Below are positions 1-17,102 of a stretch of DNA of 32,000 bases, one piece after another. The DNA is from Candidatus Saccharimonadota bacterium. Lineage in GTDB: Archaea > Nanohalarchaeota > Nanosalinia > Nanosalinales > Nanosalinaceae. The position numbers and the translations under genes are program-made. The notes beneath the pieces were generated by a model. It saw nothing but the letters and a program-made list of their open reading frames with translations. It had not been told where the DNA came from and searched no databases. The DNA is taken from contig NZ_CP180230.1 of NCBI RefSeq assembly GCF_047555085.1, forward strand, positions 630,001-662,000. Reading direction: 5' to 3'. How positions within the stretch are numbered: the stretch's first letter is position 1; each line of letters starts with the position of its first letter.

Positions 1-91
1 CGACTACGCTCTCAAACCATACGAAGTAGCTGAAACTTACAGGTACGGTACGAGAGGCCGTGACCTGAGAAAACAACTGGTGAATCACTGA
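1..91 (+). CDS. 3' end of a LamG/ConA-like-fold protein (long-form paralog), truncated by the window edge
   Basis: Frame 2 reads DYALKPYEVAETYRYGTRGRDLRKQLVNH*. This matches the C-terminus of the 1220..2638 product (EIFELYRYGTRGRDLRKFLVTH*). Stop TGA 89-91 abuts ATG 92 of the next paralog. Confidence 0.7.
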   Translation, partial: DYALKPYEVAETYRYGTRGRDLRKQLVNH

Positions 92-778
92 ATGGTACTA
101 GTCGGATACTGGCCTCTAAACGAAACCTCCGGAACAACGGCATACGACGTCAGGAACGGAAACGATGGAACAGTCAACGGTGCCGGACCTGATGGAACAG
201 GTACTTCTTCAGGCCTGCTTAACTCCTCAGCGTACTCGTTTGATGGGACTGATGACTATGTGACTATGCCTCGTTCGAGGGAAGGTTTTCCGAAAAGCTA
301 TTCTGTATGGTTTAACCCGGGAGATGGTTCCGGATATCCTGCAGTACTACGTGATGATTACCATACTCAGGACGCTTACAGTGGAATAAGTATACAGTAT
401 AACGCTCCAGACACCTGGGCGCTACAGATAGGCGATGGCAGCGGATCAGGTTCCAGCCACAGAAAAAGTCACAAAGGAGGAGATTTAACTCTGGGAAACT
501 GGCATCACCTTGTTGCCGTGGCAAGAGGAGTAAACGATGTAGAACTCTACAAAAACGGTGTAAACGACTACAAAGGTGTTTCAGGAAGCGGGAGTTCAGT
601 TCAGTACATCGGCTCGAAAAACGTTATGGGATTCAGGCCCGCAGGAAGCTACTACACTCCAGGAAAAATACAGCATGTCAGAATCTACGACCACGCACTG
701 ACACCGCAGGAAGTACAGTACATGTATTCAGTCGGAAAAAATAGAGGCCTGCACATCTCCAGCGAAAAAACTCTGTAA
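92..778 (+). CDS. LamG/ConA-like lectin-fold protein, short form (228 aa), no signal peptide
   Basis: N-terminus is MVLVGYWPLNETSGTTAYD, followed by YSFDGTDDYV and WHHLV. C-terminal block is GKIQHVRIYDHALTPQEVQYMYSVGKNRGLH. This pattern is typical of Laminin_G_3-type domains and is shared with 5 other ORFs in the window. Confidence 0.85.
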   Translation: MVLVGYWPLNETSGTTAYDVRNGNDGTVNGAGPDGTGTSSGLLNSSAYSFDGTDDYVTMPRSREGFPKSYSVWFNPGDGSGYPAVLRDDYHTQDAYSGISIQYNAPDTWALQIGDGSGSGSSHRKSHKGGDLTLGNWHHLVAVARGVNDVELYKNGVNDYKGVSGSGSSVQYIGSKNVMGFRPAGSYYTPGKIQHVRIYDHALTPQEVQYMYSVGKNRGLHISSEKTL

Positions 779-804
779 AAAACTTCCGAAAGATAAATCC
801 CAGT

Positions 805-816
805 AAAAAATTTTTT
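805..816. terminator. A6T6 palindrome between convergent genes, putative bidirectional oligo-T terminator
   Basis: The sequence aaaaaatttttt lies directly after the gatC stop (817-819, minus) and 27 nt after the 92..778 stop. Archaeal RNAP is known to terminate at oligo-T tracts. Confidence 0.35.
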
Positions 817-1095
817 CTAGGCGCTTGGGCCTTTGAAGTATCCTTCTTCCTCGTTTTCCGTATTCTGGAAGACTTCTTCTTTTTCAAGAGTTTCCTCTTT
901 CTCATCGCTTCTTGTCGTCGAATCGACGTCCACAGGATGGAAAGATGGCTCAACATCTTCTGTATCAACTTCGTCAAGAGTCTCGAACATTCCCAGAATC
1001 TTATCGAATTCCTCTGAGAACTTCGAGGCCTCTTCATCTGAAAGATTGATCCTTGCGTTCTTCGCAACTTTCTGAACTTCTTTTTGATCTACCAT
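817..1095 (-). CDS. gatC: Asp/Glu-tRNA amidotransferase subunit C (GatC)
   Basis: 92 aa. The sequence VQKVAKNARINLSDEEASKFSEEFDKILGMFETLDEVDTEDVEPSFHP ... GYFKGP has the GatC family layout and length. Confidence 0.85.
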   Translation of the reverse strand: MVDQKEVQKVAKNARINLSDEEASKFSEEFDKILGMFETLDEVDTEDVEPSFHPVDVDSTTRSDEKEETLEKEEVFQNTENEEEGYFKGPSA

Positions 1096-1187
1096 ACTTC
1101 AGAACTGTAGACAAATTCTTTAGTAATCCACGGAGAGCCCAAAAAAATTTCCACAGGCCTCTGAAAAGTAATTTATTAGGAAGATTC

Positions 1188-1200
1188 AAATTAACTTATA
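1188..1200 (+). promoter_or_regulatory. TATA-like box for the 1220..2638 gene (leaderless geometry)
   Basis: The sequence aaattaacttata is centred about 26 nt upstream of ATG 1220. The same spacing is seen at 5523-5535 and 11736-11749. Confidence 0.4.
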
Positions 1201-1219
1201 GAGGCCTCAGAAATTTTTC

Positions 1220-2638
1220 ATGGCGATAAGATGGGATTCAGAAAGCGACTGGGAGAACAGTCAGGACAGTTCCGGTACAGTCGGCAGAAATGGAAATCTA
1301 CGGCAAGGATATTCAAGAGAAAAGCCTCCGCTTTCTCAAGGCCTTGTCGGATACTGGCCTCTACACGACGATTCGGCGACTGATTACTCAGGAAATAATA
1401 ATCATGGAACACTCAATGGCGGAGTCACGACAGGCATCGCTGGAAAAGCTGGTTTACAGGCGATGAGTTTTGATGGGAGCGATGATAGTATCGATATTCC
1501 TGATCAGCTTTTATCTAATGGCTCTTCTTTAACTCTTTCTTTCTGGTTCAAGGCCGATACACTAGGGAACGATGATCGTCCTGTGGCAATCAGCCAGAGC
1601 CATGAATGCCTTGCAAATATAGGTCGTTCAGGAACTAACGAGATTGGTGTTCGATGGAGAGCAGGAGACGGTAACGCGAGAGATTATGAATTCAAAACTA
1701 TTTCTACAGATACATGGCATCACTATGCAGTTACCTATGACAGTAGCTCAGGCGACTTGAAAGGCTATCTTAACTCAACAGAACAGCTGTATAAAGCCGG
1801 TATTGGTTCTTCAGGTATAAGTCAGGAATCGGCTATAGGGCAGAAAGGAGGTACAGGATATTTCAATGGAAAAATCTCAGACGTCCGTATATACAACCGT
1901 ACTCTATCCTTATCCGAAATAAATACGCTGTACGAATGGGGATCTGGCGACTATGCGAGGCCTCCAAACGACGGAACGGCATACTACAAGTTTGATGGTG
2001 ATGGCTCGGATTCATGGGGATCTAACTCAACGACTAACAGCGGTGTAGTCTTTTCCTCTGATTCTGTAAGAAATCAGTCAGGAGAGTTCCAGGCCTCGAA
2101 CAATGATCGCGTTGTGATAGATAACTCTGAGAGTAGCTCTCATCCTCTCAACGTCGGAAATCTTGCTGCATCTGATTTCACAGTATCTACATGGGTGAAG
2201 TTTGACTCATTCCCTAATACCAACAACGATATTATCGGAAGCTACGATGGAGCATGGTACATGCTGTGGTACAACACTGGTACAGGATTCAGATGGGGTG
2301 TAGACGACGGCTCAAACAAGATCACAGCCGACGGCGGCACAGCACAGACAGAAACATGGTACCACCTCACAGGCACGTACGACAGCTCCGAGAAGAAAGC
2401 AGAACTTTACCTTAACAGCTCCAAGATAGCTGAAGGATCAAACACAAGCTTCACCGCCACAGCTTCCTCAAATCCTGTTCACATAGGAGATGGAGGCTCA
2501 GGAAGAACCAGGCCTTTAAACGGACATATCGATGACTTGCGGATCTACGATAGAAAACTGAGGCCTGAAGAAATATTTGAACTCTATAGGTACGGCACCA
2601 GAGGCCGCGACTTGAGAAAGTTCCTGGTGACGCACTAG
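1220..2638 (+). CDS. Two-domain LamG/ConA-like-fold protein, long form (472 aa) with about 45-aa N-terminal extension
   Basis: The N-terminal extension is MAIRWDSESDWENSQDSSGT...QGY. LamG domain 1 runs LVGYWPLHDD...MSFDGSDDSI...WHHYAVTY...ISDVRIYNRTLSLSEINTLYEWG. LamG domain 2 runs AYYKFDGDG...WYHLTGTYD...IDDLRIYDRKLRPEEIFELYRYGTRGRDLRKFLVTH. Confidence 0.85.
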   Translation: MAIRWDSESDWENSQDSSGTVGRNGNLRQGYSREKPPLSQGLVGYWPLHDDSATDYSGNNNHGTLNGGVTTGIAGKAGLQAMSFDGSDDSIDIPDQLLSNGSSLTLSFWFKADTLGNDDRPVAISQSHECLANIGRSGTNEIGVRWRAGDGNARDYEFKTISTDTWHHYAVTYDSSSGDLKGYLNSTEQLYKAGIGSSGISQESAIGQKGGTGYFNGKISDVRIYNRTLSLSEINTLYEWGSGDYARPPNDGTAYYKFDGDGSDSWGSNSTTNSGVVFSSDSVRNQSGEFQASNNDRVVIDNSESSSHPLNVGNLAASDFTVSTWVKFDSFPNTNNDIIGSYDGAWYMLWYNTGTGFRWGVDDGSNKITADGGTAQTETWYHLTGTYDSSEKKAELYLNSSKIAEGSNTSFTATASSNPVHIGDGGSGRTRPLNGHIDDLRIYDRKLRPEEIFELYRYGTRGRDLRKFLVTH

Positions 2639-2651
2639 TCCCTATACCAGC

Positions 2652-2658
2652 TTTTTTT
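2652..2658 (+). terminator. T7 tract 14 nt after the stop of 1220..2638
   Basis: The sequence is ccagctttttttcagg. Oligo-T is the known archaeal termination signal. Confidence 0.35.
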
Positions 2659-2843
2659 CAGGAGTTAAGGCCTCCGGATTTTTGTCTAAGAGATATAGTA
2701 TAGAATTTTTTGAGGCCTGAAAATTATTTGCGTTTTTAGTTACTGGCGGTGAAGTAAATTTTTTCTAGAGTGGAGAATAGTGAAAACTGTCCGAAGATTT
2801 ATAAACGGGCTAAGGTAAAAGTAAGTTAGATAAGATACATTTG

Positions 2844-2980
2844 TTCAAGTCTGGTGGGACAGATCTTGAACGACTCGCCTTCGAACTTGGTGGGACAAGT
2901 TTCGAGGCAAACATCGATCGGTTCACAAGTTTGGGACTTGTGATTGAACATTGGGAATTTACGTGTAACGTTTGGGAAAC
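2844..2980 (+). repeat. Array of short hairpins / TGGGA motifs in the ftsZ upstream spacer (candidate structured 5' leader or small ncRNA)
   Basis: H1 (2844-2870) is TTCAAG-TCT-[GGTGGGAC]-AGA-T-CTTGAA. H2 (2880-2906) is TTCGAA-CTT-[GGTGGGAC]-AAG-T-TTCGAG. They share the same 6+3 bp stem, bulged T and 8-nt loop, with four compensatory base-pair changes. H3 (2923-2943) is TCACAAG-[TTTGGGA]-CTTGTGA. Two weaker TTGGGAA copies lie at about 2951 and 2972. Confidence 0.55.
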
Positions 2981-3052
2981 TTTCTATGGTAGAGTTAGGT
3001 CTACTGCTTTAAAAAACTATGGTAGTTCAATCGGTGAGGGCCAGAAGGTAAG

Positions 3053-4120
3053 ATGGAATCTATAATAAACGACTCTGAAAACGACGGAAAAACCAGTCAA
3101 AATCTGGATGATGTAAAGGATGCAAGAATCCTTGTAGTGGGTGTTGGAGGAGCTGGTAATAACCAGGTTACTCGTATCCAGAACAAGGAGGTTGCAGGAG
3201 CTGAGACAGTTGCGATCAATACTGACAAGCAGCACCTGGAGATGTCATCCGCCGACAGAAAAATACTTGTCGGAAAAGACTTGACAAGAGGTCTTGGAGC
3301 TGGAGGAGAACCTGAGACAGGTGCTCGTTCAGCTGAAGAGAACAGGGCCGAACTAAGAAATCTTTTCAAAGAAGCTGACATGGTCTTCCTCACCGCAGGA
3401 ATGGGAGGAGGAACAGGAACAGGAGCAACACCAGTCCTCGCAGAAATCGCAAAGAAAGAAGACTGTATTGTGATCGGAACAGTAACAATGCCTTTCGAGA
3501 TCGAAGGAGCAAGAATGAGCAAGGCAGAAGAAGGCCTCTACAGACTGAGGAAGCACGTCGATACAGCGATCGTCATCGAAAACGACAAGCTACTTGACAT
3601 CGCAGGCGACATGCCTCTCGACCAGGCCTTCGGAGTCGCAGATGAACTGATCACTACAATGATCAAGGGAATCACAGAAACGATCAGCAAGCCAAGCCTT
3701 GTCAATCTGGATTACGCTGATGTCCAGGCAATTATGAATGAAGGAGGAGTCGCCGTAGTAGGATACGGTGAATCAGACACCTCCAACAAAGGAAGGGAAG
3801 CGATCCATGAAGCGCTCTCGAATCCGTTGCTTGACGTAGAGTTTGACGGAGCAAACGGAGCACTTCTGCACGTAGCAGGAGGAGAAGACCTGACACTGAA
3901 CGAGATCAACGACGTCGGTCAAAAAGTCACCGAAAAGCTGAACAAACAGGCACAGGTCATCTGGGGTGCAAGAATCAAGGACGACCTCAAAGGAAAGATG
4001 CAGGTCATCTCAATCATCACAGGCGTAAAATCACCTTACGTCCTTGGAGAACTGGATGAAGACGAAGAATCTGAAGTCACAGGCGACGTAGAGGACCTGG
4101 GACTGGAGATCGTCGAGTAG
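3053..4120 (+). CDS. ftsZ: Cell division GTPase FtsZ
   Basis: 355 aa. It has ILVVGVGGAGNN, the tubulin/FtsZ signature GMGGGTGTGATP and an acidic C-terminal tail. Confidence 0.95.
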   Translation: MESIINDSENDGKTSQNLDDVKDARILVVGVGGAGNNQVTRIQNKEVAGAETVAINTDKQHLEMSSADRKILVGKDLTRGLGAGGEPETGARSAEENRAELRNLFKEADMVFLTAGMGGGTGTGATPVLAEIAKKEDCIVIGTVTMPFEIEGARMSKAEEGLYRLRKHVDTAIVIENDKLLDIAGDMPLDQAFGVADELITTMIKGITETISKPSLVNLDYADVQAIMNEGGVAVVGYGESDTSNKGREAIHEALSNPLLDVEFDGANGALLHVAGGEDLTLNEINDVGQKVTEKLNKQAQVIWGARIKDDLKGKMQVISIITGVKSPYVLGELDEDEESEVTGDVEDLGLEIVE

Positions 4121-4210
4121 AAAAAAGCTTTCCACAAGCCGGATGCCGTAGAGGCCTCCGGGCAAAATCTATATTAGACGGTGGGATCTCTGTACACCGG
4201 GATGTTTTAA

Positions 4211-4229
4211 CCCCCTCCCCCTCCCCCCC
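4211..4229. repeat. C5-T-C5-T-C7 tract (G-rich on the minus strand)
   Basis: The sequence ccccctccccctccccccc is read directly. It is the only such tract in the window. GGGATCTC copies at 4183-4190 and 4246-4253 and a 6-bp inverted repeat tacacc/ggtgta (4193-4198 / 4239-4244) flank it. Confidence 0.9.
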
Positions 4230-4323
4230 TTATTCCTGGTGTATGGGGATCTCCCGCTAAACCTTTTTCTTTTAGACAAGTTTTTCCGAAATAACTATAA
4301 CATTAAACTAACAGAGTTGTCCT

Positions 4324-4863
4324 GTGAAGCGTGTATATCTTTACCTGATTACAGGCCTGTCGATAATAGCAGGTGCAGCATCAGCATACTTCATAAATAC
4401 TGGAAATGGATTATCAGCTGCCTTAGCAGGCCTGGCAGGATTTCTGTTCCTGGAGTACGGGAAGGAGAAATCCATAGAGCTGAAGAACCGGAAGCAGGTA
4501 AAGGCCTTGAACAGCACTTCGACAACGCTTCTTGAGGTTGTACTTATTGGAGGCCTTCTGGCAAGTCAGAGTCTGCCGATCAAGCTTTCAGTTGCGGTTC
4601 TGTCATCTCTCGTGTTCGTGAAGGCGTTGAAAAGCAACTCGGAGAACTTTCTGAATACGGATGTTAGTCTTCGCTTCGATCAGAGAGGCAGAGTTATCAC
4701 TGCTTTAGCTGCTATGGCGCTCTCGATATTCAATCCTTACTATATCTTCATCGGGGCTTGGGTGCTTCTGGGATCGGTAATAGTTGATACCGCGGAGATA
4801 CTTTACGATCTACAGGACAGAAGCGAGAAATCCAAGCTGAAGAACAGAATCATGTCAAACTAA
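4324..4863 (+). CDS. Hypothetical multi-pass membrane protein (GTG start)
   Basis: 179 aa with several hydrophobic segments (LYLITGLSIIAGAASAYF, LAGLAGFLFL, LLEVVLIGGLLA, ALAAMALSIF, IFIGAWVLLGSVIV). I recognise no family. Confidence 0.55.
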   Translation: MKRVYLYLITGLSIIAGAASAYFINTGNGLSAALAGLAGFLFLEYGKEKSIELKNRKQVKALNSTSTTLLEVVLIGGLLASQSLPIKLSVAVLSSLVFVKALKSNSENFLNTDVSLRFDQRGRVITALAAMALSIFNPYYIFIGAWVLLGSVIVDTAEILYDLQDRSEKSKLKNRIMSN

Positions 4864-4944
4864 GTTTCTACCCCTCTGAAAGGCATTGATAAAAACAGGC
4901 CTACGGTACCCATCTATTTAATTTTTCACCGGGCTTGTTGTTAT

Positions 4945-5451
4945 ATGCAAGCACCAATATGCAACGTATGTCTAAAGAGTGACGTTCTCTGCAGCAACTG
5001 TGAGGAGAAGCTGGAGAACGGGGAGATCTCAGAACTTGAAATCAAAATCTCACGGATACTGAAAGAACTCAGCAACGAGTACGGCTCACTTCGCGACAGC
5101 GAAATCATCCACGTCTACGACACAGAAAACGTACTTGTAATCGTTACAGCAGAAGGAGACGGAGCCAAAGTAGTCGGAAGAGGCGGCGAAATCGTCAAAG
5201 AAATCGCAAGCCGAGTCGACAAAAGCATCCGTGTAGTAGAACAGGCAAAAGAAGACAGAGCAGTAATCCAGGGCCTCCTAAGTCCTGCAGAAATCAAGTC
5301 AATCAACACAGTCTTCAAGCCTGAAGGCGAAAGCCAGAAGATAGTAGTCGACGAAGAATACGAGGGAAAAATCAATCTCTCCATCGACGAACTACAGCAA
5401 CTGATCAGCGACATCACAGGCACAGACTACGAGATCTCCTTCGAAGAATAG
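4945..5451 (+). CDS. NusA-like KH-domain RNA-binding protein with N-terminal Zn ribbon
   Basis: The N-terminus has CNVCLKSDVLCSNC (CxxC-x7-CxxC), followed by a KH-like GxxG segment (VVGRGGEIVKEIASRV). Size and layout resemble the small archaeal NusA-like proteins. Confidence 0.6.
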   Translation: MQAPICNVCLKSDVLCSNCEEKLENGEISELEIKISRILKELSNEYGSLRDSEIIHVYDTENVLVIVTAEGDGAKVVGRGGEIVKEIASRVDKSIRVVEQAKEDRAVIQGLLSPAEIKSINTVFKPEGESQKIVVDEEYEGKINLSIDELQQLISDITGTDYEISFEE

Positions 5452-5522
5452 AACACAGGCCTTCCAAGAGGCCTCTCATTTTCCAATTTTTCTCTAAGAA
5501 ATTTTCTTCTGACACTCTGACA

Positions 5523-5535
5523 AATTATAAATTAG
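5523..5535 (+). promoter_or_regulatory. TATA-like box for the 5559..6215 gene
   Basis: The sequence aaattataaatta is centred about 30 nt upstream of ATG 5559. Confidence 0.45.
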
Positions 5536-5558
5536 TCCAAGGCCTAAAATCTGCATAA

Positions 5559-6215
5559 ATGACGCTTATCGGCTACTGGCCTCTCAACGAAAACTCGGGA
5601 TCAAAGGCCTACGATCATTCCGGAAATGAGAATCACGGAACTTTGAATGGTGGAGTTACACAGGGAACAACGGGCCTTCTGGCAGATACTGCGTACAGTT
5701 TCGATGGTTCTGATGATTACGTCAGTATAGCAGATAGTTCTGTTCTTGATGGCTCACCGATCTCTGCTACCGCATGGGTTAAAACCTCTGCAAGCGGAGA
5801 AAAAGTTATAGTTGCAAAGTTCAACTCATCCTCCCCCTATAATGGATACTGGTACGGACAGGGGAAAGATGGAGGTATCAGAGTATGTCTCGGATATGAC
5901 GGGCAGAAATGCTACGAAGTAAGTGATTTTCCTAACGATGGAAACTGGCACCAGATCTGCTTCACTTACGATAACTCAACTCTGAAAATATACCAGGATG
6001 GAAAACATATAGATTCAATATCAGAGACAACGGACGTGAAAGATACAGCAACAGACCTACAGATCGGATATGGACAGTGGGGAGTAGAAAACGAGTGGAA
6101 TGGAAAAATATCCGAAGTAAGAATCTATGACAGGCCTTTAACGAAAAGTGAAGTCCAGTACCTGTACAACGTCGGAAAAAGAGGCCTTCATACTACTTCC
6201 AGGAAAACTTCTTAG
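5559..6215 (+). CDS. LamG/ConA-like-fold protein, short form (218 aa), no signal peptide
   Basis: It reads MTLIGYWPLNENSGSKAYDHSGNENHGTLNGGVTQG...YSFDGSDDYV...WHQICFTYD...GKISEVRIYDRPLTKSEVQYLYNVGKRGLHTTSRKTS. Confidence 0.85.
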   Translation: MTLIGYWPLNENSGSKAYDHSGNENHGTLNGGVTQGTTGLLADTAYSFDGSDDYVSIADSSVLDGSPISATAWVKTSASGEKVIVAKFNSSSPYNGYWYGQGKDGGIRVCLGYDGQKCYEVSDFPNDGNWHQICFTYDNSTLKIYQDGKHIDSISETTDVKDTATDLQIGYGQWGVENEWNGKISEVRIYDRPLTKSEVQYLYNVGKRGLHTTSRKTS

Positions 6216-6281
6216 AATTTTTCTGGTAGAGGCCTGTGTGGAGTTCTGGTTTTAAGAGTTTTCTCTTGTTATTTTCTGTTT

Positions 6282-8072: not shown

Positions 8073-8113
8073 GGGAAAGATTAAAGATTCTGAAGAGGGA
8101 AATTTTTCCTGTA

Positions 8114-9449: not shown

Positions 9450-9489
9450 AGCGGAAAGCTGTTAAACGTTGAAGCCCAAAAAGTACTGG

Positions 9490-10155
9490 ATGAGTGCTGA
9501 ATCAGAGCCTATCGAACAGATAGTAGATCAGTATCCGCACAGGACACAAGAATCAGTTGAAACAGATCTGGACTCAAAGGCAATTCTTTCAAGATACCTT
9601 GATCATCAGGGAGTCAACGAATACGATTTTATTGAGTCAGATCACCCTTTCTATGCTGCACTCGGACGAGTAAAAGATTCAGAAGGCCAGCTAGTCCTCA
9701 CAAGCCATTACACATATCCTGACGATACAGATTTCTCTCAAGACCATACAAGAGCATCGCTAACAGTGGAGAAAATCGATGCAGCGCTTGAAGAAAATGT
9801 TATAGATGAAAACAGTATACTGGAGGCTTCTGGAGCGGAGATAATCGACAGCAAAAAGGCATCAACACTTAACGAAGATGAATTAAGGCCTGAAACAGTA
9901 CACTGCGTTGTATTCTACGACAGGCCTGTAGTCAGCGCCATAGAGGATACTGAATATGAAAGCACAGTCCATAAACAGGCAGCAATGCAGTCACTCAGCG
10001 AGCCTTCTCTCGCTACAGCAATAATACACTCAGGCAGGAACTCTTCAGGAGATGATTTTGCAGCAGCACAGATCGACTACTGGACACGCACCATGGACGG
10101 CATTAACGGAGGCCTTGACTATACAGAGCTTAACTGGGAGAATCCCGGATTTTAA
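9490..10155 (+). CDS. Hypothetical acidic protein
   Basis: The long ORF opens at 9469 with TTG, and the first ATG is at 9490 (MSAESEPIEQ...). Composition is acidic like the neighbouring genes. No motif recognised. Confidence 0.55.
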   Translation: MSAESEPIEQIVDQYPHRTQESVETDLDSKAILSRYLDHQGVNEYDFIESDHPFYAALGRVKDSEGQLVLTSHYTYPDDTDFSQDHTRASLTVEKIDAALEENVIDENSILEASGAEIIDSKKASTLNEDELRPETVHCVVFYDRPVVSAIEDTEYESTVHKQAAMQSLSEPSLATAIIHSGRNSSGDDFAAAQIDYWTRTMDGINGGLDYTELNWENPGF

Positions 10156-10172
10156 TCTTCAAAGAAGAAAAA

Positions 10173-10331
10173 TTAGATGTTTTGCTGACTAACGTACTTC
10201 GAATGATCGATCGAAGGATGATTGTTCCTGAAATGCTTCTCCAGCTCTGAAACATAGTCCATTCTGGAGGCCTCCTCGATCATTTTTCCACACCTTTCAC
10301 AGGTGAATTTATAGCTCATCTGAACCACCAT
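10173..10331 (-). CDS. Small (52 aa) zinc-finger-like micro-protein, below the ORF-track cutoff
   Basis: Hand translation gives MVVQMSYKFTCERCGKMIEEASRMDYVSELEKHFRNNHPSIDHSKYVSQQNI*. CxxC plus HxxxxH gives a C2H2-like ligand set. An AT-rich spacer lies upstream. Confidence 0.35.
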   Translation of the reverse strand: MVVQMSYKFTCERCGKMIEEASRMDYVSELEKHFRNNHPSIDHSKYVSQQNI

Positions 10332-10564
10332 AGCACATAATTACATACTGAATCTTATAAGATTAATGAACGATTATACTACCTTGAAAAATCAAATAGA
10401 GGCCTTAAATCTCTTTTAATCAAATAAAGGCTCTCTAAAATTATTTAATCCTATTAAAAATACTTTTTCAGATGTAAAGTTTCTGGAAAAAATTCTGGAG
10501 GGATTAGACTAATGCAGAAATTGTATCGAGTATAGAGAAAGAGATAGAGGGAAAATTGATGGAA

Positions 10565-11284
10565 CTAATCTTTCAAGACAAATTCTATCCTCTCCACGTC
10601 CGCGCCTTTACTTTTCCTGTCGACTATCTCCAGACCTCCGAGTTCTCCCGTCGAATCAACGTGAGTACCCCCACACGGACAGATATCAATATCTCCTATC
10701 TCCACAGCCCTGAGAGGATCAATGTGATCAGGTATCAGGTCAAGATTTGTTCTTCCGTCCTCAGTCTCTTTTTCCAGTTCGCTACGAGGCCTCTCACTTT
10801 TCTCCAGTTCTATATCGGCTTCGATTATCTCATTTGAAAGCTCCTCGATTTTCTCCAGATCCTTTTCATCGAAATCTGCTGGCTCGAAATCTATCCGACT
10901 TGAGTCTTCTCCCACCTGATTTCCTGCTGTAGAGGCCTCGTACTCCTCAAGTACGACTTTCGACACGATGTGCTGGGCGGTATGCATCTTCATATGACTG
11001 TATCTGCGTTCCCAGTCGATCTCCCCCTCAATTTTTTCTCCTTCCTCAGGCAGCGGGCCTTCGAGGTAGTGGCGTATTTCTCCCTGTCTTTTCTGCACAT
11101 CAGTGACTGAGGCCTCTTTATCTTTCCAGAAAATTTTTCCGTAATCAGCGGGCTGGCCTCCTCCCTCCTTGTAGAAAAGCGTTTTATCCAGTACGATATA
11201 TGAGGCCTCTTCATCGACTTTTTCGACTTCTGCCTCGAAACTTTTCTGGTACTCGTTATCGGGGCAGTACAGCAGTTCTGTCAT
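10565..11284 (-). CDS. alaX: Alanyl-tRNA editing protein AlaX (AlaXM-type trans-editing domain)
   Basis: It has HTAQHIVS (HxxxH) and CPCGGTHV (CxxxH) zinc motifs of the Ala/Thr-RS second additional domain. 239 aa. Confidence 0.85.
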   Translation of the reverse strand: MTELLYCPDNEYQKSFEAEVEKVDEEASYIVLDKTLFYKEGGGQPADYGKIFWKDKEASVTDVQKRQGEIRHYLEGPLPEEGEKIEGEIDWERRYSHMKMHTAQHIVSKVVLEEYEASTAGNQVGEDSSRIDFEPADFDEKDLEKIEELSNEIIEADIELEKSERPRSELEKETEDGRTNLDLIPDHIDPLRAVEIGDIDICPCGGTHVDSTGELGGLEIVDRKSKGADVERIEFVLKD

Positions 11285-11402
11285 GGAAAAGTTTTCTCGA
11301 GTTGAGAATTTAAACAGTTACTGTACAACCGGGACGTGATACTGTGAGAAAAATATAATAGGAAAATATGTGGTAAAAAATTCTAAGACTTTTTTTGGCT
11401 GC

Positions 11403-11594
11403 TTACTTCTCTGTGACGTTTACTGCTTCGGGACCTCTGTCGCCTTCTTCGGTCTCGAATTCCACTTCTGTGCCTTCTTCTACCTCTTCACCTTCTAGGT
11501 TACTGACGTGGAAAAAGACGTCATCATCTTCTTCTTCAGCTTCGATGAATCCGTATCCTTTCTTGTCGTGGAAAAACGTTACTGTTCCTTCCAT
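11403..11594 (-). CDS. Cold-shock domain protein (CspA family)
   Basis: 63 aa. It reads [19 protein letters not shown]...DVFFHVSNL, giving RNP1-like KGYGFI and RNP2-like VFFH motifs. Confidence 0.9.
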
Positions 11595-11603
11595 ACTCTA
11601 AAA

Positions 11604-11610
11604 CACCTCC
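11604..11610 (-). promoter_or_regulatory. Shine-Dalgarno-like GGAGGTG upstream of csp
   Basis: The minus strand reads caaGGAGGTGttttagagtATG, with a 9-nt spacer. It is complementary to the conserved CCUCC at the 16S 3' end. Confidence 0.4.
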
Positions 11611-11735
11611 TTGTAATGAAGATTTACACACCAAGCCTTTTATAGTCGCCATCCGATCCGAGGAGAAAAATTCTCCAGAAAAACAGGGTTTTTCTCCAAG
11701 GTAGAGGCCTGTATTTCGCCCCGTTAAGCAAGAGG

Positions 11736-11749
11736 GTTTAAGAAATTTA
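11736..11749 (+). promoter_or_regulatory. TATA-like box for rps17e
   Basis: The sequence gtttaagaaattta is centred about 26 nt upstream of ATG 11768. Confidence 0.4.
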
Positions 11750-11767
11750 CCGGATAGTGTAGTCTTT

Positions 11768-11959
11768 ATGAGTAAGGTACGCCAGACATACATCAAAAGG
11801 CTTGCGAAAGATCTTGTTGACGCTGAACCAGAGAAGTTTTCAGAGGACTTTGACGAGAACAAGGAAGCACTTAAAGAGACAGACGAGTTCGAATCAAAGA
11901 AACTGAGAAACAGAGTAGCAGGATACATCGTCAGAGTCGTACAGAATAGTAAAGAGTAG
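11768..11959 (+). CDS. rps17e: 30S ribosomal protein eS17 (S17e)
   Basis: 63 aa. MSKVRQTYIKRLAKDLV...KLRNRVAGYIVR matches the eS17 N-terminal pattern (GxVRxxxxKRxA...LRNxIAGY). Confidence 0.85.
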   Translation: MSKVRQTYIKRLAKDLVDAEPEKFSEDFDENKEALKETDEFESKKLRNRVAGYIVRVVQNSKE

Positions 11960-13349
11960 AAAACATAAGCAAGACCGCCAGCTGCAGGAAACCTATACCT
12001 GGAACTGATGCGGTCGTTCTATCAGCATTTCTAACGAAGACTTCCATAGAGTTCTTTGAGTTGATCTCGAACTCTTCATTAACTGTTGTAACATTCAGTA
12101 TAAATTTTCCAGAGGCCTCTGGCTGGAAACGTATATCCAGTTCCTTCATCTCGCCAGGACTTAGTTCGTAGGCACAGTCCTGATCAAGACAGTTGCTGTT
12201 GATCTCATCGTTCAGGAATTCTGCGTTGAGGCCTTCAACTGTAGAAGTTAGAGACTTCACCTCGTCATGCGTATTGGATACGTGGTACCTGATTACCTGT
12301 GAAGTTCCTGTAGTGGTGACTACGGAATCATATCTGTGATTGAACGCTGTCTGCATCCTGACCTGTGATGAAACAATATTTCTGAAGTTGAAAGGCATTG
12401 AAACAGTTTCGTAGCCATCGGAGGCATCTATACGCCACTGATAATCCTGCAGGGAATCTATTCCCTCCCATTCACACTGAACTGTTCCTTGATCTAGAGT
12501 TCTTGTACATATTGTCTCTGGAGAGGCCTGTGAACTGTAAAATCTTACATCGATAGTTTCTCCATCGCTGTCGAGAAAGTTGGCCTGTAAAGTTACCTCG
12601 CTGCCTGATGTACGGCTGTCATCTTCAGGCCTGACATCGAAGATCTGTGGCTCGCTGTTCGGAACAGTGTTGTTAGCCGAGTTCTTCCCTACGTTGCTTA
12701 CTGTATCATCCAGCTTTACTGTGACGTTGACTTCCTCCAGAACGTTGAAACTGTCTTCACCTATACTTGAGTAAAAGCATCGGGCCTGTGTATCATCGCC
12801 GTAACTTGTCCGCAGCTCCATTTCCCTGTATATAGAGTTGCTGGAGGCCTCTGCCTCGATCCAGCATGTCTCCATATCATCTATACCTTCATCGTCGCTG
12901 ACGACTGCGGAGACGTTGAACTCATGCTGATCAGTATAGTTATGGAAGTTAGGGCCGTCCACTATCTCGGGAACCGCTGTCTGCACAAGAGTATCATCCA
13001 TCGAAGTGTTAGTGCCGTCGCTGTTCTCCGCCACGACTTCACATACCAGGCCCTGATCATAAGTGTAGTTGCCGGCATCAAGATACGAGTCAACTGTTGA
13101 ACCCGAAGGTATATCCTTGAAAGTCTGAGTGTAAACCTCTGCACCGCCTACACGCCAGTTAACGTAGATATCGCCGTTCTCATTTTCGCTGTCCTCATAG
13201 TAGGCCTGACAGAAAGCATCCTCAGTGCTGTAAACCGGATCCTCCAGAGACACACCCGGCTCGCTCGGCGGAGAGGCCTGTACAAAAGCTGCAGCTGACG
13301 TCAAAAACAGAAAAACTACTGCATACCTGAGGCCCGGGATCTCTGCCAC
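11931..13349 (-). CDS. Secreted/cell-surface acidic protein with N-terminal signal peptide and C-terminal TM anchor (PGF-CTERM-like)
   Basis: The N-terminus MAEIPGLRYAVVFLFLTSAAAFVQASPP looks like a signal peptide. The C-terminus is VPGIGFLQLAVLLMFSTLYYSVRL. There are many N-x-S/T sequons. The 3' end overlaps rps17e by 29 nt (convergent). Confidence 0.7.
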   Translation of the reverse strand: MAEIPGLRYAVVFLFLTSAAAFVQASPPSEPGVSLEDPVYSTEDAFCQAYYEDSENENGDIYVNWRVGGAEVYTQTFKDIPSGSTVDSYLDAGNYTYDQGLVCEVVAENSDGTNTSMDDTLVQTAVPEIVDGPNFHNYTDQHEFNVSAVVSDDEGIDDMETCWIEAEASSNSIYREMELRTSYGDDTQARCFYSSIGEDSFNVLEEVNVTVKLDDTVSNVGKNSANNTVPNSEPQIFDVRPEDDSRTSGSEVTLQANFLDSDGETIDVRFYSSQASPETICTRTLDQGTVQCEWEGIDSLQDYQWRIDASDGYETVSMPFNFRNIVSSQVRMQTAFNHRYDSVVTTTGTSQVIRYHVSNTHDEVKSLTSTVEGLNAEFLNDEINSNCLDQDCAYELSPGEMKELDIRFQPEASGKFILNVTTVNEEFEINSKNSMEVFVRNADRTTASVPGIGFLQLAVLLMFSTLYYSVRL

Positions 13350-13444
13350 AGTAGAGTTTTTCGGGAAATTAGTAGAAAAAGGTGTCGGAGCTTCAGCAGG
13401 CCTGAAAAATCCTTCATATAAATCTTCAATCCAAAAACAGTGAT

Positions 13445-14215
13445 ATGGAAATCAATAATTACAGGAACTTCTTCTTCGACCTAGACAAGACAATCTGGAA
13501 CTGGGATAAATCAGTTACAGGAGCAGAAGATCTTATAGACACCTTGAAAGATGCAGGAAAGAACGTGTACTTCCACACAGATAACACACTGCTTTCAAGG
13601 AAGGCCTACGCCGATAAACTTTCCTCAATGGGGATTCCTGCTGAAGAAGAGGACGTGATTACTTCTGGATATGTTGCAGCGGAAGTTCTGGCTATGAACA
13701 ATACCAGAAAAGTCTACGCAGCCGGCGAACAGGGCCTGGTAGAGGAACTAGGGAAGAAAAACATCGAGATCACTGAAGAGGCCTCTACAGCAGTTATGGG
13801 GCTTGACAGGAACTTCAACTACGACAAAATTTCCAAATTAAAAGAGATAATCGAAAGAGACGGCACAGTCTACACATGCAGTACAGAGAAAACTTTCAGA
13901 CGTGAATCCAAGGAACTGCCGCATCAGAGGCCTTTCAACTCTGCTGTAAAGGAGTACGGAAAAGTTGAGCTCGTAGGCAAGCCAACTGAAAAATACAGGA
14001 AAGTTTTCAAGGATTACTTCGACTACTTCCCCGGCAAATCACTTTTCATCGGCGATCGTCTCGCAGACATCGAGACAGGTAACAAGCTCGGGATGAAGAC
14101 CGCAGCAGTCCTCTCCGGCGACATCAGTGAGAAAAAACTGAAGAAAGCTGAAGACGAACAGGTACCGGACTACGTCCTGACAGGCCTCCACAAGCTACGC
14201 AGAAGAATAATATAG
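13445..14215 (+). CDS. HAD-superfamily phosphatase (subfamily IIA, NagD-like)
   Basis: Motif I is FFFDLDKT, there is a GKP motif, and motif IV is IGDRLADIETGNKLGMKTAAVLSG. Confidence 0.75.
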   Translation: MEINNYRNFFFDLDKTIWNWDKSVTGAEDLIDTLKDAGKNVYFHTDNTLLSRKAYADKLSSMGIPAEEEDVITSGYVAAEVLAMNNTRKVYAAGEQGLVEELGKKNIEITEEASTAVMGLDRNFNYDKISKLKEIIERDGTVYTCSTEKTFRRESKELPHQRPFNSAVKEYGKVELVGKPTEKYRKVFKDYFDYFPGKSLFIGDRLADIETGNKLGMKTAAVLSGDISEKKLKKAEDEQVPDYVLTGLHKLRRRII

Positions 14216-14252
14216 AGAAAAAGCGGGAAAAGGCCTCGAACAAAGAAATTTT

Positions 14253-14828
14253 TCACAGTTCTTTTTCTTCTTCCAGCCAGTCCAGAAACTTTTTCACAGC
14301 CCTGTTCCTGTGGAACTCTCCGTCCTTCAAGTTCTGATCCTGTGCCAGGGATTCTTCCTCTCCTTCAGGTATGAAGTAGCTGTTGTACGGTAGATGTGGA
14401 TGTGATTCTCCTGTCTTCTCTTCAGGTACTCTGCCCTCCATTTTCCCTGTGAAAACTTTCACTTCCCCGTCTTCTATAACTGCTATAGCTGTCTTGAAGT
14501 AGGCCTTTCTGTTTTCCTCGCCGCGCATCAGATCAAGTAATTTTTCCGCTCCTGCAGTATCTGCGAAGAAAGCTGCCTCGGCACCGGGAAATCCTCCGAT
14601 CGCCTCCACGTAGAATCCGGTATCCTCAACGATAAGAAGCTCATCTTCGAGTTCAGAGGCCTCCAGCGAATCCCTGGCCTTCTGCTCCGCAACATTTTCG
14701 ACATCCATCGCATCGATCTCAGGGACATCGACATCCACCTGTACAAGTTCAAGGCCTCTCTCCTCAAACTTCGGCTCCATCTCCGCCAGTTTCCCTTCGT
14801 TACTTGTAGCAAAAAATACTTTCTCCAT
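14253..14828 (-). CDS. Non-canonical purine NTP pyrophosphatase (Ham1/RdgB/ITPase family)
   Basis: It has FFATSNEGKLAEM at the N-terminus, plus EDTGFYVEA...GFPG and a C-terminal HRNRA. Confidence 0.85.
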   Translation of the reverse strand: MEKVFFATSNEGKLAEMEPKFEERGLELVQVDVDVPEIDAMDVENVAEQKARDSLEASELEDELLIVEDTGFYVEAIGGFPGAEAAFFADTAGAEKLLDLMRGEENRKAYFKTAIAVIEDGEVKVFTGKMEGRVPEEKTGESHPHLPYNSYFIPEGEEESLAQDQNLKDGEFHRNRAVKKFLDWLEEEKEL

Positions 14829-14908
14829 AGAAAATCTCTGAGGCCTCGAGTTTTGTTAACCTTTCGTTCAAGGGAAACGGTAAAAACAAAGCGCAAGAAA
14901 CACTGTAC

Positions 14909-15721
14909 ATGCCGAAACTTTCCTGGAACGGAGACGACTTCCAGAATCCACAGGACTCATCTGGAACCGCTACAGAGAAAATTTCCGGCGGAGGCCTGGA
15001 ACAGGGATATTTCCACGGAAGTTTAACTAGAGGCCTTGTAGCGTATTATCCTATGAGTTCTGGTTCTGGCAGCACTCTCTTTGACAGCACCGCTTTATCT
15101 AATGATGGAACTCTTAAACCCGGCGGTTCCGGTACCACCTCAGCGGATAACATGTGGACTTCCGGCAAGCTGGGAAGTTATTCTCTTAGTTTCGACGGCA
15201 CGGATGACTACGTTGAGATCCCTGATCCAGATAATTACACTCTTACACAGCCGTATACTATCAGTTGCTGGATCTATCCACGGGGAAACAGCAGTGCCAA
15301 TAATCCTGGAATACTTGCGAAAGGACCGTTCAACGACAACGCTGACCTTCAGATGGAATACAGAGAGGCCTCTGACGAGAGGGCGATAAGATTTCTGCAT
15401 GACTGGAACACCGATAACCACTTCTTCGACTCGTCTGCAGGCTCAGTTCCTCTGAATCAATGGAGCCTCATAACTTTCACGTATGCAGGAGGCGTCAGAA
15501 AAATCTATGTCAACAGCGTCGAAGAAAACTCTTATTCGGACTCGACCGGTCAGGATACCAACAGCAACTCCTGGTGGATAGGACAGAAAGGAGGAACTTA
15601 CTTTGACGGAAAAATAGATGATATAAGATTCTATAACAGAAAACTTTCCGAACCGGAGATACAGGCCTTGTACAATCTTTCAAATCCTTCAAAAATTTCG
15701 GAGGAGGATACACTGGTTTGA
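14909..15721 (+). CDS. LamG/ConA-like-fold protein with N-terminal extension (270 aa), head of a three-gene LamG array
   Basis: The extension MPKLSWNGDDFQNPQDSSGT...QGY is homologous to that of 1220..2638. It is followed by LVAYYPM...LSFDGTDDYVEIPD...GKIDDIRFYNRKLSEPEIQALYN. Confidence 0.85.
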   Translation: MPKLSWNGDDFQNPQDSSGTATEKISGGGLEQGYFHGSLTRGLVAYYPMSSGSGSTLFDSTALSNDGTLKPGGSGTTSADNMWTSGKLGSYSLSFDGTDDYVEIPDPDNYTLTQPYTISCWIYPRGNSSANNPGILAKGPFNDNADLQMEYREASDERAIRFLHDWNTDNHFFDSSAGSVPLNQWSLITFTYAGGVRKIYVNSVEENSYSDSTGQDTNSNSWWIGQKGGTYFDGKIDDIRFYNRKLSEPEIQALYNLSNPSKISEEDTLV

Positions 15722-16368
15722 GTTTAATTGGTTACTGGCCTCTTAACGAGGCCTCGGGGACGGCCTATGATTATTCGGGGAACGAGTATCATGGATCTGT
15801 GAACGGTGGTGTAACTCAGGGAGATAACGGGCCTCTGGCCGAAGATTCGTATGGTTTTAACGGTAGTGATGGTTATGTCAGTTCTTCTGAAAGCATGGGT
15901 ATTTCAGGTTCTGATCCTGTTTCTATCTCTGCGTGGGCGAAGGCCTCTAGTTCGACTGGCTGGCAGATGCTGGCAGGATTCCATAGAGGCCAGAACGCGG
16001 GCAATCACTTTGCACTGGCTATAACAGGACAGGATGAATGGGGTGTCCACGGCTGGAGCGACGGTGACTTTGATTCCGGTGTCACACCGGATAGCAACTG
16101 GCATCACCTCACCGCAGTCTACGATGGCTCGCAGCTACGATTCTATATCGACGGCGTGGAGGCCCCGAACAGTCCTTTCAACTATACATACAGCATACAG
16201 AGCACAAAGATGTTTTTCGGCGTAGAAGAGGAAAGACTGGATCACTGGTACAGCGGCAACCTTTCCGAAGTAAGACTCTACGACAGGCCTCTAACAGAAA
16301 GCGAAATCCAGTACCTCTACAATGTTGGAAGTAGAGGCCTTCAGGTGACGGGGAGGAAAAGTTCATGA
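15718..16368 (+). CDS. LamG/ConA-like-fold protein, short form (216 aa)
   Basis: The TTG start overlaps the upstream stop (TTGA). It reads (M)SLIGYWPLNEASGTAYDYSGNEYHG...WHHLTAVYD...LSEVRLYDRPLTESEIQYLYNVGSRGLQVTGRKSS. Confidence 0.85.
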   Translation: MSLIGYWPLNEASGTAYDYSGNEYHGSVNGGVTQGDNGPLAEDSYGFNGSDGYVSSSESMGISGSDPVSISAWAKASSSTGWQMLAGFHRGQNAGNHFALAITGQDEWGVHGWSDGDFDSGVTPDSNWHHLTAVYDGSQLRFYIDGVEAPNSPFNYTYSIQSTKMFFGVEEERLDHWYSGNLSEVRLYDRPLTESEIQYLYNVGSRGLQVTGRKSS

Positions 16369-16369
16369 G

Positions 16370-17029
16370 GTGGATGATTTGACGCTGCGTGGTTACTGGC
16401 CTCTAACTGAGACATCCGGAAGTACGGCGTACGATTACTCGGGTAGAGGCCTTGATGGAACAGTCTACGGTGCTTCTATGGGTGCTTCAGGTTTGTTCGG
16501 TTCCGGTGCGTACAGTTTCGATGGTAATGATGATTACGTGAAGATTGACAGTCATGTGATCTCGGCGGGCAAGGATTCTCTCAGCGTATCTGCGTGGATC
16601 TATATCACGGGGAACGCCGGTAACAGCTGGGAGCGTTACGTCGATGTTCAGGACGGTAACAACGGCGGTGCGTGTGCTCTTTACTGGGACGATGATGATG
16701 CCCGGTACGGTTTCAGCGCTCTTAACACTCAGGCTATCGTTACAGGTGCTAATCCTCCTTCAGGCGAGTGGATGCTGTGGACAGGCGTGCTGCGGAATGG
16801 AAGCATCGAGTTCTACATGAACGCAGAGAAAAAGGCAGAGGCCTCGACAAGCAACACTACATCGGATTCATTTGTCTCAATCGGGAAAAGATACGATGCG
16901 AACGATCAGGTGCTGGCAAAGATGAACGACGTCCGTGTGTACAGTCACGCTCTTTCGCTGCAGGAGATCCAGTACCTGTACAGCGTGGGAAGTAGAGGCC
17001 TCCATGTTTCAGGTAAGAGGACTCTGTGA
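16370..17029 (+). CDS. LamG/ConA-like-fold protein, short form (219 aa)
   Basis: The GTG start lies 1 nt after the upstream stop. It reads LRGYWPLTETSGSTAYDYSG...YSFDGNDDYV...MNDVRVYSHALSLQEIQYLYSVGSRGLHVSGKRTL. Confidence 0.85.
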   Translation: MDDLTLRGYWPLTETSGSTAYDYSGRGLDGTVYGASMGASGLFGSGAYSFDGNDDYVKIDSHVISAGKDSLSVSAWIYITGNAGNSWERYVDVQDGNNGGACALYWDDDDARYGFSALNTQAIVTGANPPSGEWMLWTGVLRNGSIEFYMNAEKKAEASTSNTTSDSFVSIGKRYDANDQVLAKMNDVRVYSHALSLQEIQYLYSVGSRGLHVSGKRTL

Positions 17030-17102
17030 AAAAGTTCCCGGAGGATTTTTTCAGTCAGTTTAAAGAGTTTTCAGGCCTGAATTTTTTGCAGGTGAATCAA
17101 AA

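Follow-up and report, generated by a model that had tools for sequence, protein, structure and literature searches.

Among the described counterparts of the proteins studied here are the organism-specific, variable, lectin-like proteins with laminin G (LamG) domains that nanohaloarchaea carry and that have been proposed to serve host attachment (PMC7443923, PMC10266531, PMC9563170). The LamG surface proteins published for DPANN archaea are large (up to five LamG domains), bear signal peptides or anchors and lie in islands. We examined a 32,000-nucleotide stretch of the genome of Candidatus Nanosalina sp. VS9-1 (contig NZ_CP180230.1, positions 630,001 to 662,000; hereafter the window), which encodes several LamG proteins from the same phylum and the same domain superfamily. 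In contrast to the published proteins, they are 210-290 or 450-480 residues long, leaderless, with fixed termini and encoded amid housekeeping genes. Assignment to the signal-bearing, multi-domain DPANN surface proteins was rejected, as a hydropathy and motif scan found neither leader nor anchor and the lengths are 207-290 or 450-480 residues. The fold assignment itself is not new, the NCBI annotation of these genes already being 'LamG domain-containing protein', while our literature search met with no account of the uniform short and N-extension forms without leader, of the conserved tails they carry, or of the at least 19 copies, the gene module and the slot turnover reported below. Our favored reading, to which we give a rough probability of 45%, is that the proteins form a lineage-specific, expanded, non-catalytic family of LamG/concanavalin A (ConA) fold, which would provide an interchangeable and diversifying repertoire for ligand or host recognition docking to a surface apparatus.

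A LamG domain is also part of TafC, the tip adhesin of the fimbriae of Haloarcula that depend on twin-arginine translocation (Tat). TafC combines a Tat leader with two domains, one an Ig-like fimbrin domain and the other of laminin-G type; there is about 1 copy of it per 100 major subunits, and its mode of assembly is donor-strand exchange (PMC11821415; PMC12337348). What varies within taf loci is TafC and its counterparts (PMC12337348). The sole NCBIfam match of the window proteins is to the LamG half of the TafC model NF052521 (E 2e-11 to 6e-13). In TafC of the salt-in halophilic archaeon Haloarcula hispanica, a LamG/ConA domain serves as a minor, variable, adhesive component of a structure on the cell surface, but the window proteins have no twin-arginine leader and no Ig-like fimbrin domain with its donor strand. 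We rejected membership in the TafC family: the scores are 42-49 bits where the curated cut-off asks for 410, the alignment covers just positions 149-366 of the 373-position model, and the nanohaloarchaeal module described below yielded no TafA/E-like fimbrin.

The closest bacterial relatives in CPR/Parcubacteria genomes (CPR, candidate phyla radiation) are type IV pilin-LamG fusions of 410-426 residues (leader …FTLIELLVVIAIIAILA…) present in several copies per genome. Their C-terminal head is a LamG domain of this LamG_3 subtype, with GYWPLNEGSG as its first strand, and the organisms that encode them are also episymbionts with reduced genomes. Multi-copy fusions occur at the CPR/Parcubacteria loci L007, L013, L028, L035, L042, L057 and L064; short copies at contig edges of Patescibacteria metagenome-assembled genomes (MAGs; L009, L017, L023, L033, L037, L045 and L048) start at GYWPLNE, with their upstream ends open. 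A characterized pilin with a ConA-like lectin module, PilC of S. sanguinis, binds sialylated glycans (PMC9934059). Classification as type IV or modular pilins was likewise rejected: the window proteins have neither a class III leader nor a hydrophobic α1 helix and hence cannot polymerize as pilins.

The family displays three fixed leaderless architectures, namely short, N-extension and double-LamG, each with its own conserved C-terminal tail. Short forms (207-237 residues), whose LamG domain begins at residue 3-5, start with M-x-L-(I/V)-GYWPLNE, the last motif at residue 5, and end in a basic tail, either an S tail (…KRGLQTTSKK(T/S)S) or an L tail (…RGLHTSDKRTL), the latter mostly downstream of another family gene. 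N-extension forms (245-286 residues) start with MPKLNW(D/N)GDDFRNPQDSSGT…QGY.HGSLT.GLVAYYPM and end with …PSK(V/I)SPGDTLQ, and double-LamG forms (~450-480 residues) end with …RGRD(L/M)RK.LVN., with or without the N-terminal extension. An earlier note on this DNA, made from the sequence alone, had placed seven LamG open reading frames (ORFs) in the window; the ~45-residue N-terminal extension shared by the long forms and the distinct conserved tail types come in addition to its description. The family members of the window are as follows.

2..91 (+): 29-residue 3' end of a double-LamG-type member, truncated by the window edge; tail …YGTRGRDLRKQLVNH
92..778 (+): short leaderless LamG protein, 228 residues, XOE43864, L tail …RGLHISSEKTL; PF13385 E 5.8e-21, hidden Markov model (HMM) map and tail typing
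1220..2638 (+): 472-residue protein, XOE43866, with a 45-residue N-terminal extension (MAIRWDSESDWENSQDSSGT…QGY), two LamG domains and tail …RGRDLRKFLVTH; PF13385 E 9.5e-51
5559..6215 (+): solitary short leaderless LamG protein, 218 residues, XOE43870, S tail …KRGLHTTSRKTS; PF13385 E 2.2e-29
14909..15721 (+): N-extension form, 270 residues, XOE43882, with MPKLSWNGDDFQNPQDSSGT…QGY, one LamG domain and tail …PSKISEEDTLV; PF13385 E 4.9e-30
15718..16368 (+): short leaderless LamG protein, 216 residues, XOE43883, S tail …SRGLQVTGRKSS; PF13385 E 1.7e-25
16370..17029 (+): short leaderless LamG protein, 219 residues, XOE43884, L tail …SRGLHVSGKRTL; PF13385 E 1.3e-22

All six complete ORFs are present exactly where the earlier note had put them, and each is maximal, opening at the first start codon after a stop, which makes a hidden N-terminal extension (leader) impossible. 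The 5' fragment aligns with the C-terminus of the 472-residue ORF (tails …RGRDLRKQLVNH and …RGRDLRKFLVTH) and is the counterpart of the second gene of the conserved LamG module (L001 8655-10001; L091 9614-11005). The final gene of that module, 92-778, starts on the base that follows the upstream stop codon; it is syntenic to positions 10001-10666 of Ca. Nanohalobium constans (L001), adjoining gatC. In the 1220-2638 protein, which is 33% identical to the Nanohalobium double-LamG protein, the family HMM places domains at residues 42-241 and 269-464. The 5559-6215 gene, located between a KH-domain gene and ABCE1, served as reference for the structure model, and the homolog search with its product returned 230 sequences, among them a VS9-1 protein at 100% identity. 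A three-gene LamG run is opened by 14909-15721, whose product is 41% identical to the first half of the Nanohalobium 480-residue protein; it continues with 15718-16368 (TTG start, 4-nt overlap with the upstream stop) and 16370-17029 (GTG start 2 nt past the upstream stop). Family DNA amounts to 4,978 nt, or 29% of positions 1-17029, less than the ~5.5 kb previously estimated.

All six complete ORFs match Laminin_G_3 (PF13385) over model positions 1-151 with 75.6-172.3 bits (threshold 27.6 bits; E 5.8e-21 to 9.5e-51), with two domains in 1220-2638. The AlphaFold2 (AF2) model of the 5559 protein, built with a 111-sequence alignment, reached a mean predicted local distance difference test (pLDDT) of 89.5 and a predicted template modeling score of 0.88, and consists of a β-sandwich of 15 strands together with a C-terminal helix (196-208) and a tail modeled as disordered (pLDDT 46). 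Foldseek assigned probability 1.00 to LamG-type domains in both PDB and BFVD, and the LamG/ConA fold postulated at the outset is confirmed by these searches. The best PDB matches (E ~5e-11) were the clostridial neurotoxin HCN subdomain and AbnA domain 4 (5hon_A, TM-score 0.74/0.78). These domains (6hox, 3n7j, 5hon) are non-catalytic jelly-rolls in receptor- or carbohydrate-binding regions, with TM-scores of ~0.7; at 14-24% identity, and being parts of large secreted proteins, they resemble the family at the level of the fold only. No glycoside hydrolase (GH) family was found among the Pfam matches of the window ORFs at E ≤ 0.01, and the top structural matches are non-catalytic domains. Both observations led us to reject a ConA-clan glycoside hydrolase (e.g. 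GH16), and the interpretation of the earlier note is supported in that no enzyme class is assigned. A non-catalytic binding role is instead suggested by the best PDB matches, which are receptor- or carbohydrate-binding, and by the best viral matches, which are virion LamG proteins.

The motifs that the earlier note had taken for the mark of the family proved far less specific. A search with the family profile matched 509,157 cluster representatives at E ≤ 0.001; giant proteins containing 6-32 LamG domains in tandem fill the top 150 places, each domain being aligned at profile positions ~3-207. Judging from these matches, GYWPL…, SFDG.DDYV, W.H…YD and …VRIY.R.L…E… are a generic Laminin_G_3 signature without family-defining value.

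The closest viral structure is a stand-alone caudoviral LamG protein of 227 residues (A0A6J5NKQ5, TM-score 0.85/0.82), followed by LamG proteins of HHTV-1 and HVTV-1. The LamG-like jelly-rolls of tailed phages and haloviruses (A0A6J5NKQ5, HHTV-1 R4TGC8, HVTV-1 L7TI36, S-PM2) are likewise ~220-240 residues long and leaderless, match over the whole chain (TM-score 0.82-0.85) and are annotated as virion structural. Small leaderless LamG proteins thus have a virion precedent, and the earlier note's statement that such multi-copy, stand-alone forms could be assigned to no described system needs revision. The genes could then be remnants or domesticated parts of a virus, whose tail-fiber or virion LamG proteins the host genome would have captured: virion proteins normally have no leader, the PHROGs matches are to virion structural, tail-fiber and baseplate families, and a pilin-like protein of Nanohalobium bears tail-fiber-like GDxMTGxL repeats. 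The PHROGs matches, however, are at domain level only, and the viral LamG proteins are 20-34% identical to the family and have neither the nanohaloarchaeal tails nor the N-extension. A search of 2.9 million viral contigs yielded no close relative (best identity 34%), annotated phage genomes gave 27-34% over the LamG part only, and no capsid, portal, terminase or integrase gene was found in any examined locus. The family genes are chromosomal, syntenic with gatC-ftsZ-ABCE1 across genera, with other copies dispersed individually among core genes. We consequently rejected prophage or viral cargo, with neither close viral relatives nor virion genes nearby, and consider a viral origin extremely unlikely; as a recent event it appears largely refuted by these comparisons, while an ancient viral origin of the domain subtype is conceivable.

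Ca. Nanosalina sp. VS9-1 belongs to the class Nanohaloarchaea and has a genome of 1,046,238 bp, in line with the streamlined, DPANN-type genome that had been surmised. By its NCBI accessions, which span XOE43863 to XOE44854, it encodes at least 10 short forms, 7 N-extension forms and 2 double forms; this genome-wide count of at least 19 bears out the multi-copy status and corresponds to more than 1% of the 1.05-Mb genome. Ca. Nanohalobium constans showed one short form plus the module. All matches with the leaderless short architecture come from Nanohaloarchaeota genomes or metagenome sequences, whereas remoter matches (Aenigmatarchaeota, bacteria) bear leaders or are domains of large proteins. 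A scan of a genome-contig collection returned only one nanohaloarchaeal MAG, and close relatives seem absent from that collection.

Sequence variation is concentrated in the middle of the domain. Across 111 sequences, the mean frequency of the top residue is 0.70 in the N-block (1-57), 0.26 at 58-129, 0.33 at 138-180, 0.75 in the C-block (181-209) and 0.67 in the tail (210-218); the central ~120 residues are hypervariable and contain most indels. At the DNA level, the four short copies of the window are 0.47-0.55 identical overall, with 0.60-0.70 in the first 60 codons (N-block), 0.52-0.72 in the last 45 (C-block) and 0.35-0.40, near random, in the middle. These values are lower than the 65-80% that the earlier note had estimated by eye for the conserved blocks, while its view of the copies as old, diverged paralogs is upheld by the low identity between them and by a repeat search. 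That search, over positions 1-17100, returned only short motif-level matches (best 110 nt at 77% and 33 nt at 94%) and hence no sign of recent gene-conversion tracts.

Comparison of syntenic loci reveals how quickly the family changes relative to its surroundings. The closest homolog of the 5559 gene (P0002, 72% identical) lies in an unrelated, non-syntenic neighborhood, so rates were taken from two other pairs. Between the window and Nanohalobium, syntenic housekeeping proteins are 74% (GatC), 86% (FtsZ), 77% (KH), 73% (ABCE1) and 74% (DHH) identical, against 29-41% for positionally equivalent LamG proteins. Between two metagenome contigs, L004 and L094, housekeeping neighbors are 82-98% identical with a nonsynonymous divergence (dN) of 0.008-0.116, whereas the LamG proteins in the shared eIF2α|S27e slot are 48% identical, with dN 0.56 and saturated synonymous divergence. 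The DNA profile across this slot falls from 93-97% in the flanks to ~75% in the LamG N-block and 40-55% in the center, with ~60% in the C-block. L004 has an extra LamG gene inserted in the same slot, and its short LamG gene beside PCNA (19418-20209), intact in L094 (8001-8711), is broken into two ORFs of 188 and 67 residues. The broken copy is direct evidence of decay besides turnover of family members.

As read from these alignments, the pattern is one of cassette-like turnover, i.e. replacement, gain and decay in conserved slots, unlike in-place hypermutation, and the LamG family is the fastest-changing element of otherwise conserved chromosomal slots. The variable proteins of diversity-generating retroelements were also considered and rejected: the fold is LamG and not that of C-type lectins (CLec), indels extend over ~120 residues, positions 1-17100 contain no variable/template repeats and no reverse transcriptase gene is present among the window ORFs.

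Part of the family is organized as a conserved module; in Ca. Nanohalobium constans (L001, CP040089.1), an operon-like run of six genes lies directly beside gatC-ftsZ-…-ABCE1.

Gene 1: 274-residue protein with an archaeal class III leader (…KG↓QSAIEYLTTYGWMLVVVAVVGG) and tail-fiber-like GDxMTGxL repeats
Gene 2: 108-residue protein with SRRKFLK, ending …GEIWYDSSA; TAT-signal TIGR01409 at 22.3 bits against a cut-off of 16.7
Gene 3: ~156-residue β-rich protein (…LNLVDPSN…, YEDTTGxGxADN repeat unit)
Genes 4-6: N-extension double-LamG (480 residues), double-LamG (448 residues) and short LamG (221 residues)

Genes 1-3, which come before the LamG genes, are unannotated (L001 5516-7211 and L006 1715-2724). 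In MAG L006 the counterpart of the Tat-leader protein keeps the twin-arginine motif (TRRNFIK). The ~156-residue family has 8 matches, in nanohaloarchaea only; its AF2 model is poor (pLDDT 60) and the fold search was non-significant, and no resemblance to a Tafi fimbrin emerged from it. The VS9-1 homolog XOE43968 (240 residues), of the same type as QGA80303, has the repeat unit duplicated and sits ~100 genes away from the window LamG genes, the VS9-1 module therefore being split.

The window keeps the Nanohalobium order: the double-LamG end …RGRDLRKQLVNH and the short gene 92-778 are followed by leftward gatC and then, rightward, by 1220-2638, ftsZ … 5559-6215 and ABCE1, the left edge cutting the module. 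Neighboring housekeeping genes (GatC, FtsZ, KH protein, ABCE1, MetRS) were identified through 73-86% identity to syntenic Nanohalobium genes carrying the corresponding Pfam domains. The module's LamG genes are also present in MAG L006, in L091 and in the soda-lake contigs L095, L097 and L098. Right after them, MAG L006 has four genes whose products bear an N-terminal domain of archaellin/pilin type (ArlF/ArlG/UpsA-like), and a gene for a FlaI ATPase (E 4e-122). Other copies are dispersed singly or in pairs among core genes, e.g. eIF2α|LamG|S27e-L44e or beside PCNA, and 27 of the 42 family genes in the fetched loci have a family neighbor within 150 bp. The genes had been described as embedded among housekeeping genes outside any obvious island; core genes are indeed their neighbors, but some of them belong to the conserved module, whose place beside gatC-ftsZ-ABCE1 is syntenic across genera. 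A bacterial-type promoter and terminator scan, which is inapplicable to archaea, did no better than on shuffled sequences.

From these observations we infer a binding function, docking through the conserved blocks, a surface location and an association with filaments. The hypervariable central 120 residues, which comprise loops and sheet surface, would determine ligand or host specificity, while the conserved N-block, C-block and short C-terminal tail would offer a constant docking surface. Each variant would attach non-covalently to a common partner made of other LamG architectures and small module proteins, and probably including a type IV pilus/archaellum-like or fimbria-like surface structure. 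The LamG proteins would then correspond in function to the lectin head of TafC or of a modular pilin, each being encoded as a polypeptide of its own without a leader. This LamG subtype is connected to filaments by three independent lines: the pilin/archaellum-like neighbors, the CPR pilin-LamG fusions and the TafC match.

Several findings weigh against this reading, whose main weakness is export, no member having a recognizable signal. Hydropathy and twin-arginine motif scans found no hydrophobic leader, transmembrane segment or twin-arginine motif in the six window ORFs, the maximum 15-residue hydropathy of the proteins being far under the transmembrane level. No signal peptide, class III leader, Tat motif, transmembrane segment or lipobox was found either in ~110 short and ~30 N-extension members, so that the absence of leaders claimed for the window holds among the homologs. 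Taken at face value, a leaderless family would consist of cytoplasmic proteins. Only 2 of ~6 module-bearing loci have pilin-like genes next to the module, and the dispersed copies lie amid ribosomal, translation and replication genes with no filament genes near. The alternation of conserved N- and C-blocks with a variable center is partly generic to Laminin_G_3 domains. Composition weakly supports exposure, the LamG proteins containing 1.37 sequons per 100 residues versus 0.36 for housekeeping proteins and resembling in this the window's Sec-leader surface protein, although the excess is confounded by their N/S/T/G-rich composition. Finally, Tat would be the obvious route for folded proteins in a salt-in organism, but cultivated nanohaloarchaea reportedly lack it or keep only a vestige (PMC10266531), and its distribution across families is reported to be patchy (PMC9765267), which weakens a Tat piggy-back route.

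The same facts make it conceivable, if somewhat unlikely in our estimate, that the proteins are never exported and act as cytoplasmic LamG binding modules, e.g. adaptors or sensors for variable intracellular ligands such as molecules of viral or host origin that the symbiont takes up. The lack of an export signal extends over more than 140 sequences. The genes are scattered between core housekeeping genes and often seem to have a TATA-like element of their own upstream. Immune or sensor genes, too, typically turn over rapidly and vary in copy number, and the reported weakness or absence of Tat in the phylum (PMC10266531) fits proteins that stay inside. An immune role nevertheless finds no echo in PADLOC-DB, where none of the 5,027 defense-system models matched the six window proteins or the three module proteins, and no effector domains (nucleases, proteases, NTPases) are fused or adjoining. 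Every close structural or sequence analog is extracellular or virion-exposed, and the module co-occurs with leader-bearing pilin-like and Tat-leader genes. The N/S/T-rich, weakly acidic LamG bodies (net charge -6.5 per 100 residues) also differ from the cytoplasmic proteins of the same window (-11.5).

The C-terminal tail opens another route. The conserved tail peptide is KRGLQTTSKKTS, and in the fetched loci the short-form tail motif was found on LamG short forms only. The last 12 residues of short forms have a mean net charge of +3.6 (minimum +1), against -6.5 per 100 residues for the body, and the tail is disordered in the model (pLDDT 46) yet conserved (top-residue frequency 0.67). Unstructured, positively charged C-terminal signals are a recognition feature of type IV secretion substrates (VirB/D4), which the tails recall by analogy. 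The proteins might in that case be leaderless substrates read through the tail by VirB4/TraG-type giant proteins or an ABC-type exporter, with the LamG body acting on or in the host. VirB4/TraG-like ATPase domains do occur in nanohaloarchaeal giant proteins, and effectors as yet unidentified have been postulated for the haloarchaeal host (PMC10266531). That each of the three architectures has its own conserved tail is also compatible with such a signal. On the other hand, no VirB4/TraG-type gene was adjacent or co-occurring in any fetched locus, the N-extension tail (…PSKVSPGDTLQ) is net-neutral or acidic, and the type IV secretion reading of the giant proteins is itself merely a proposal. A lectin-fold effector inside the host cytoplasm would be unusual, and the tail could equally be a docking peptide. 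We therefore regard tail-directed delivery as distinctly unlikely.

Export in the folded state through the module's own small Tat-leader protein seems very unlikely. The LamG protein would fold in the high-salt cytoplasm, bind this partner and cross the membrane with it. The Nanohalobium module does hold a protein above the TAT-signal cut-off and the twin-arginine motif persists in MAG L006, and haloarchaea have Tat-dependent fimbriae whose tip adhesin contains a LamG domain (PMC11821415, PMC12337348). The hypothesis was downgraded on account of the state of the pathway in cultivated nanohaloarchaea, where Tat is reported to be missing or reduced to a lone, 'likely inactive' TatC, TatC being patchy across families. 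In VS9-1, moreover, the module is split and the hydropathy and twin-arginine scan found no Tat-leader ORF in the window. To our knowledge, Tat hitch-hiking is limited to a few redox enzyme complexes.

A more novel reading, which we consider unlikely, is that of a split adhesin, in which Nanohaloarchaeota would have separated the adhesin head from the body of the filament or anchor. A library of leaderless, cassette-like LamG heads (short, N-extension and double forms) spread over the genome would be exported without an N-terminal signal, their C-terminal tails being read by a T4SS (type IV secretion system)-like, pilus-like or other machine, and would be loaded interchangeably on a common surface apparatus or delivered to the host.

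The window has further features. The palindrome AGGCCT occurs 152 times in 32 kb (4.75/kb), a ~20-fold excess over dinucleotide shuffles (7.4 ± 2.9), in coding (4.4/kb) as well as intergenic (7.2/kb) DNA and in all three codon phases (e.g. positions 1155, 1202, 2668, 2713, 5457/5469, 5540, 6230, 14841 and 17073). Of 234 GGCC tetramers, 152 are AGGCCT, and TGGCCA, CGGCCG and GGGCCC are almost absent. The signature is present at 2.1-3.7/kb in Nanosalina-like metagenome contigs (loci L002, L004, L086, L088, L091, L094 and L244) and absent from Ca. Nanohalobium (0 in 20.7 kb), MAG L006 and the soda-lake contig L095; an uptake-signal-like origin, or one driven by restriction-modification or methylation, is possible. 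IleRS (25184-28252, -) is 41% identical to the syntenic Nanohalobium IleRS versus 73-86% for its neighbors, a discrepancy that suggests xenologous replacement in one of the two lineages.

Four ORFs resemble NUDIX hydrolases, three of them consecutive on the plus strand, namely 19416-20228 (two NUDIX-like halves), 20221-20625 and 20673-21185, and the fourth at 9051-9449 (+). Such a concentration is unusual for a 1-Mb genome; the call relies on sequence motifs and on the Pfam NUDIX match of a syntenic L001 gene. The sole clear leader-bearing surface protein of the window is encoded at 11931-13349 (-), an acidic protein of 472 residues whose leader is of Sec type (MAEIPGLRYAVVFLFLTSAAAFVQA) and whose hydrophobic C-terminal anchor comes after PGIGF, PGF-CTERM-like; it has 8 Cys, 1.5 sequons per 100 residues and no Pfam family.

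Host recognition by DPANN archaea is an open question, in which LamG domains have so far been invoked generically, as parts of large secreted adhesins. If the small LamG proteins described here are cytoplasmic, they represent an unexplained large investment by a minimal genome; if they are surface-exposed, they become prime candidates for host-range determinants and imply an unrecognized archaeal route of export or assembly. Co-cultures of Nanohalobium (proteins QGA80300-80302), Nanohalococcus and Nanohalovita exist in which either outcome is testable. Primers and antibodies could be directed at the conserved termini, so that the repertoire could be profiled across hypersaline metagenomes. Should the split adhesin be real, a 1-Mb symbiont would gain a combinatorial, rapidly replaceable determinant of host range, through a mode of adhesin organization and protein export so far undescribed in archaea.

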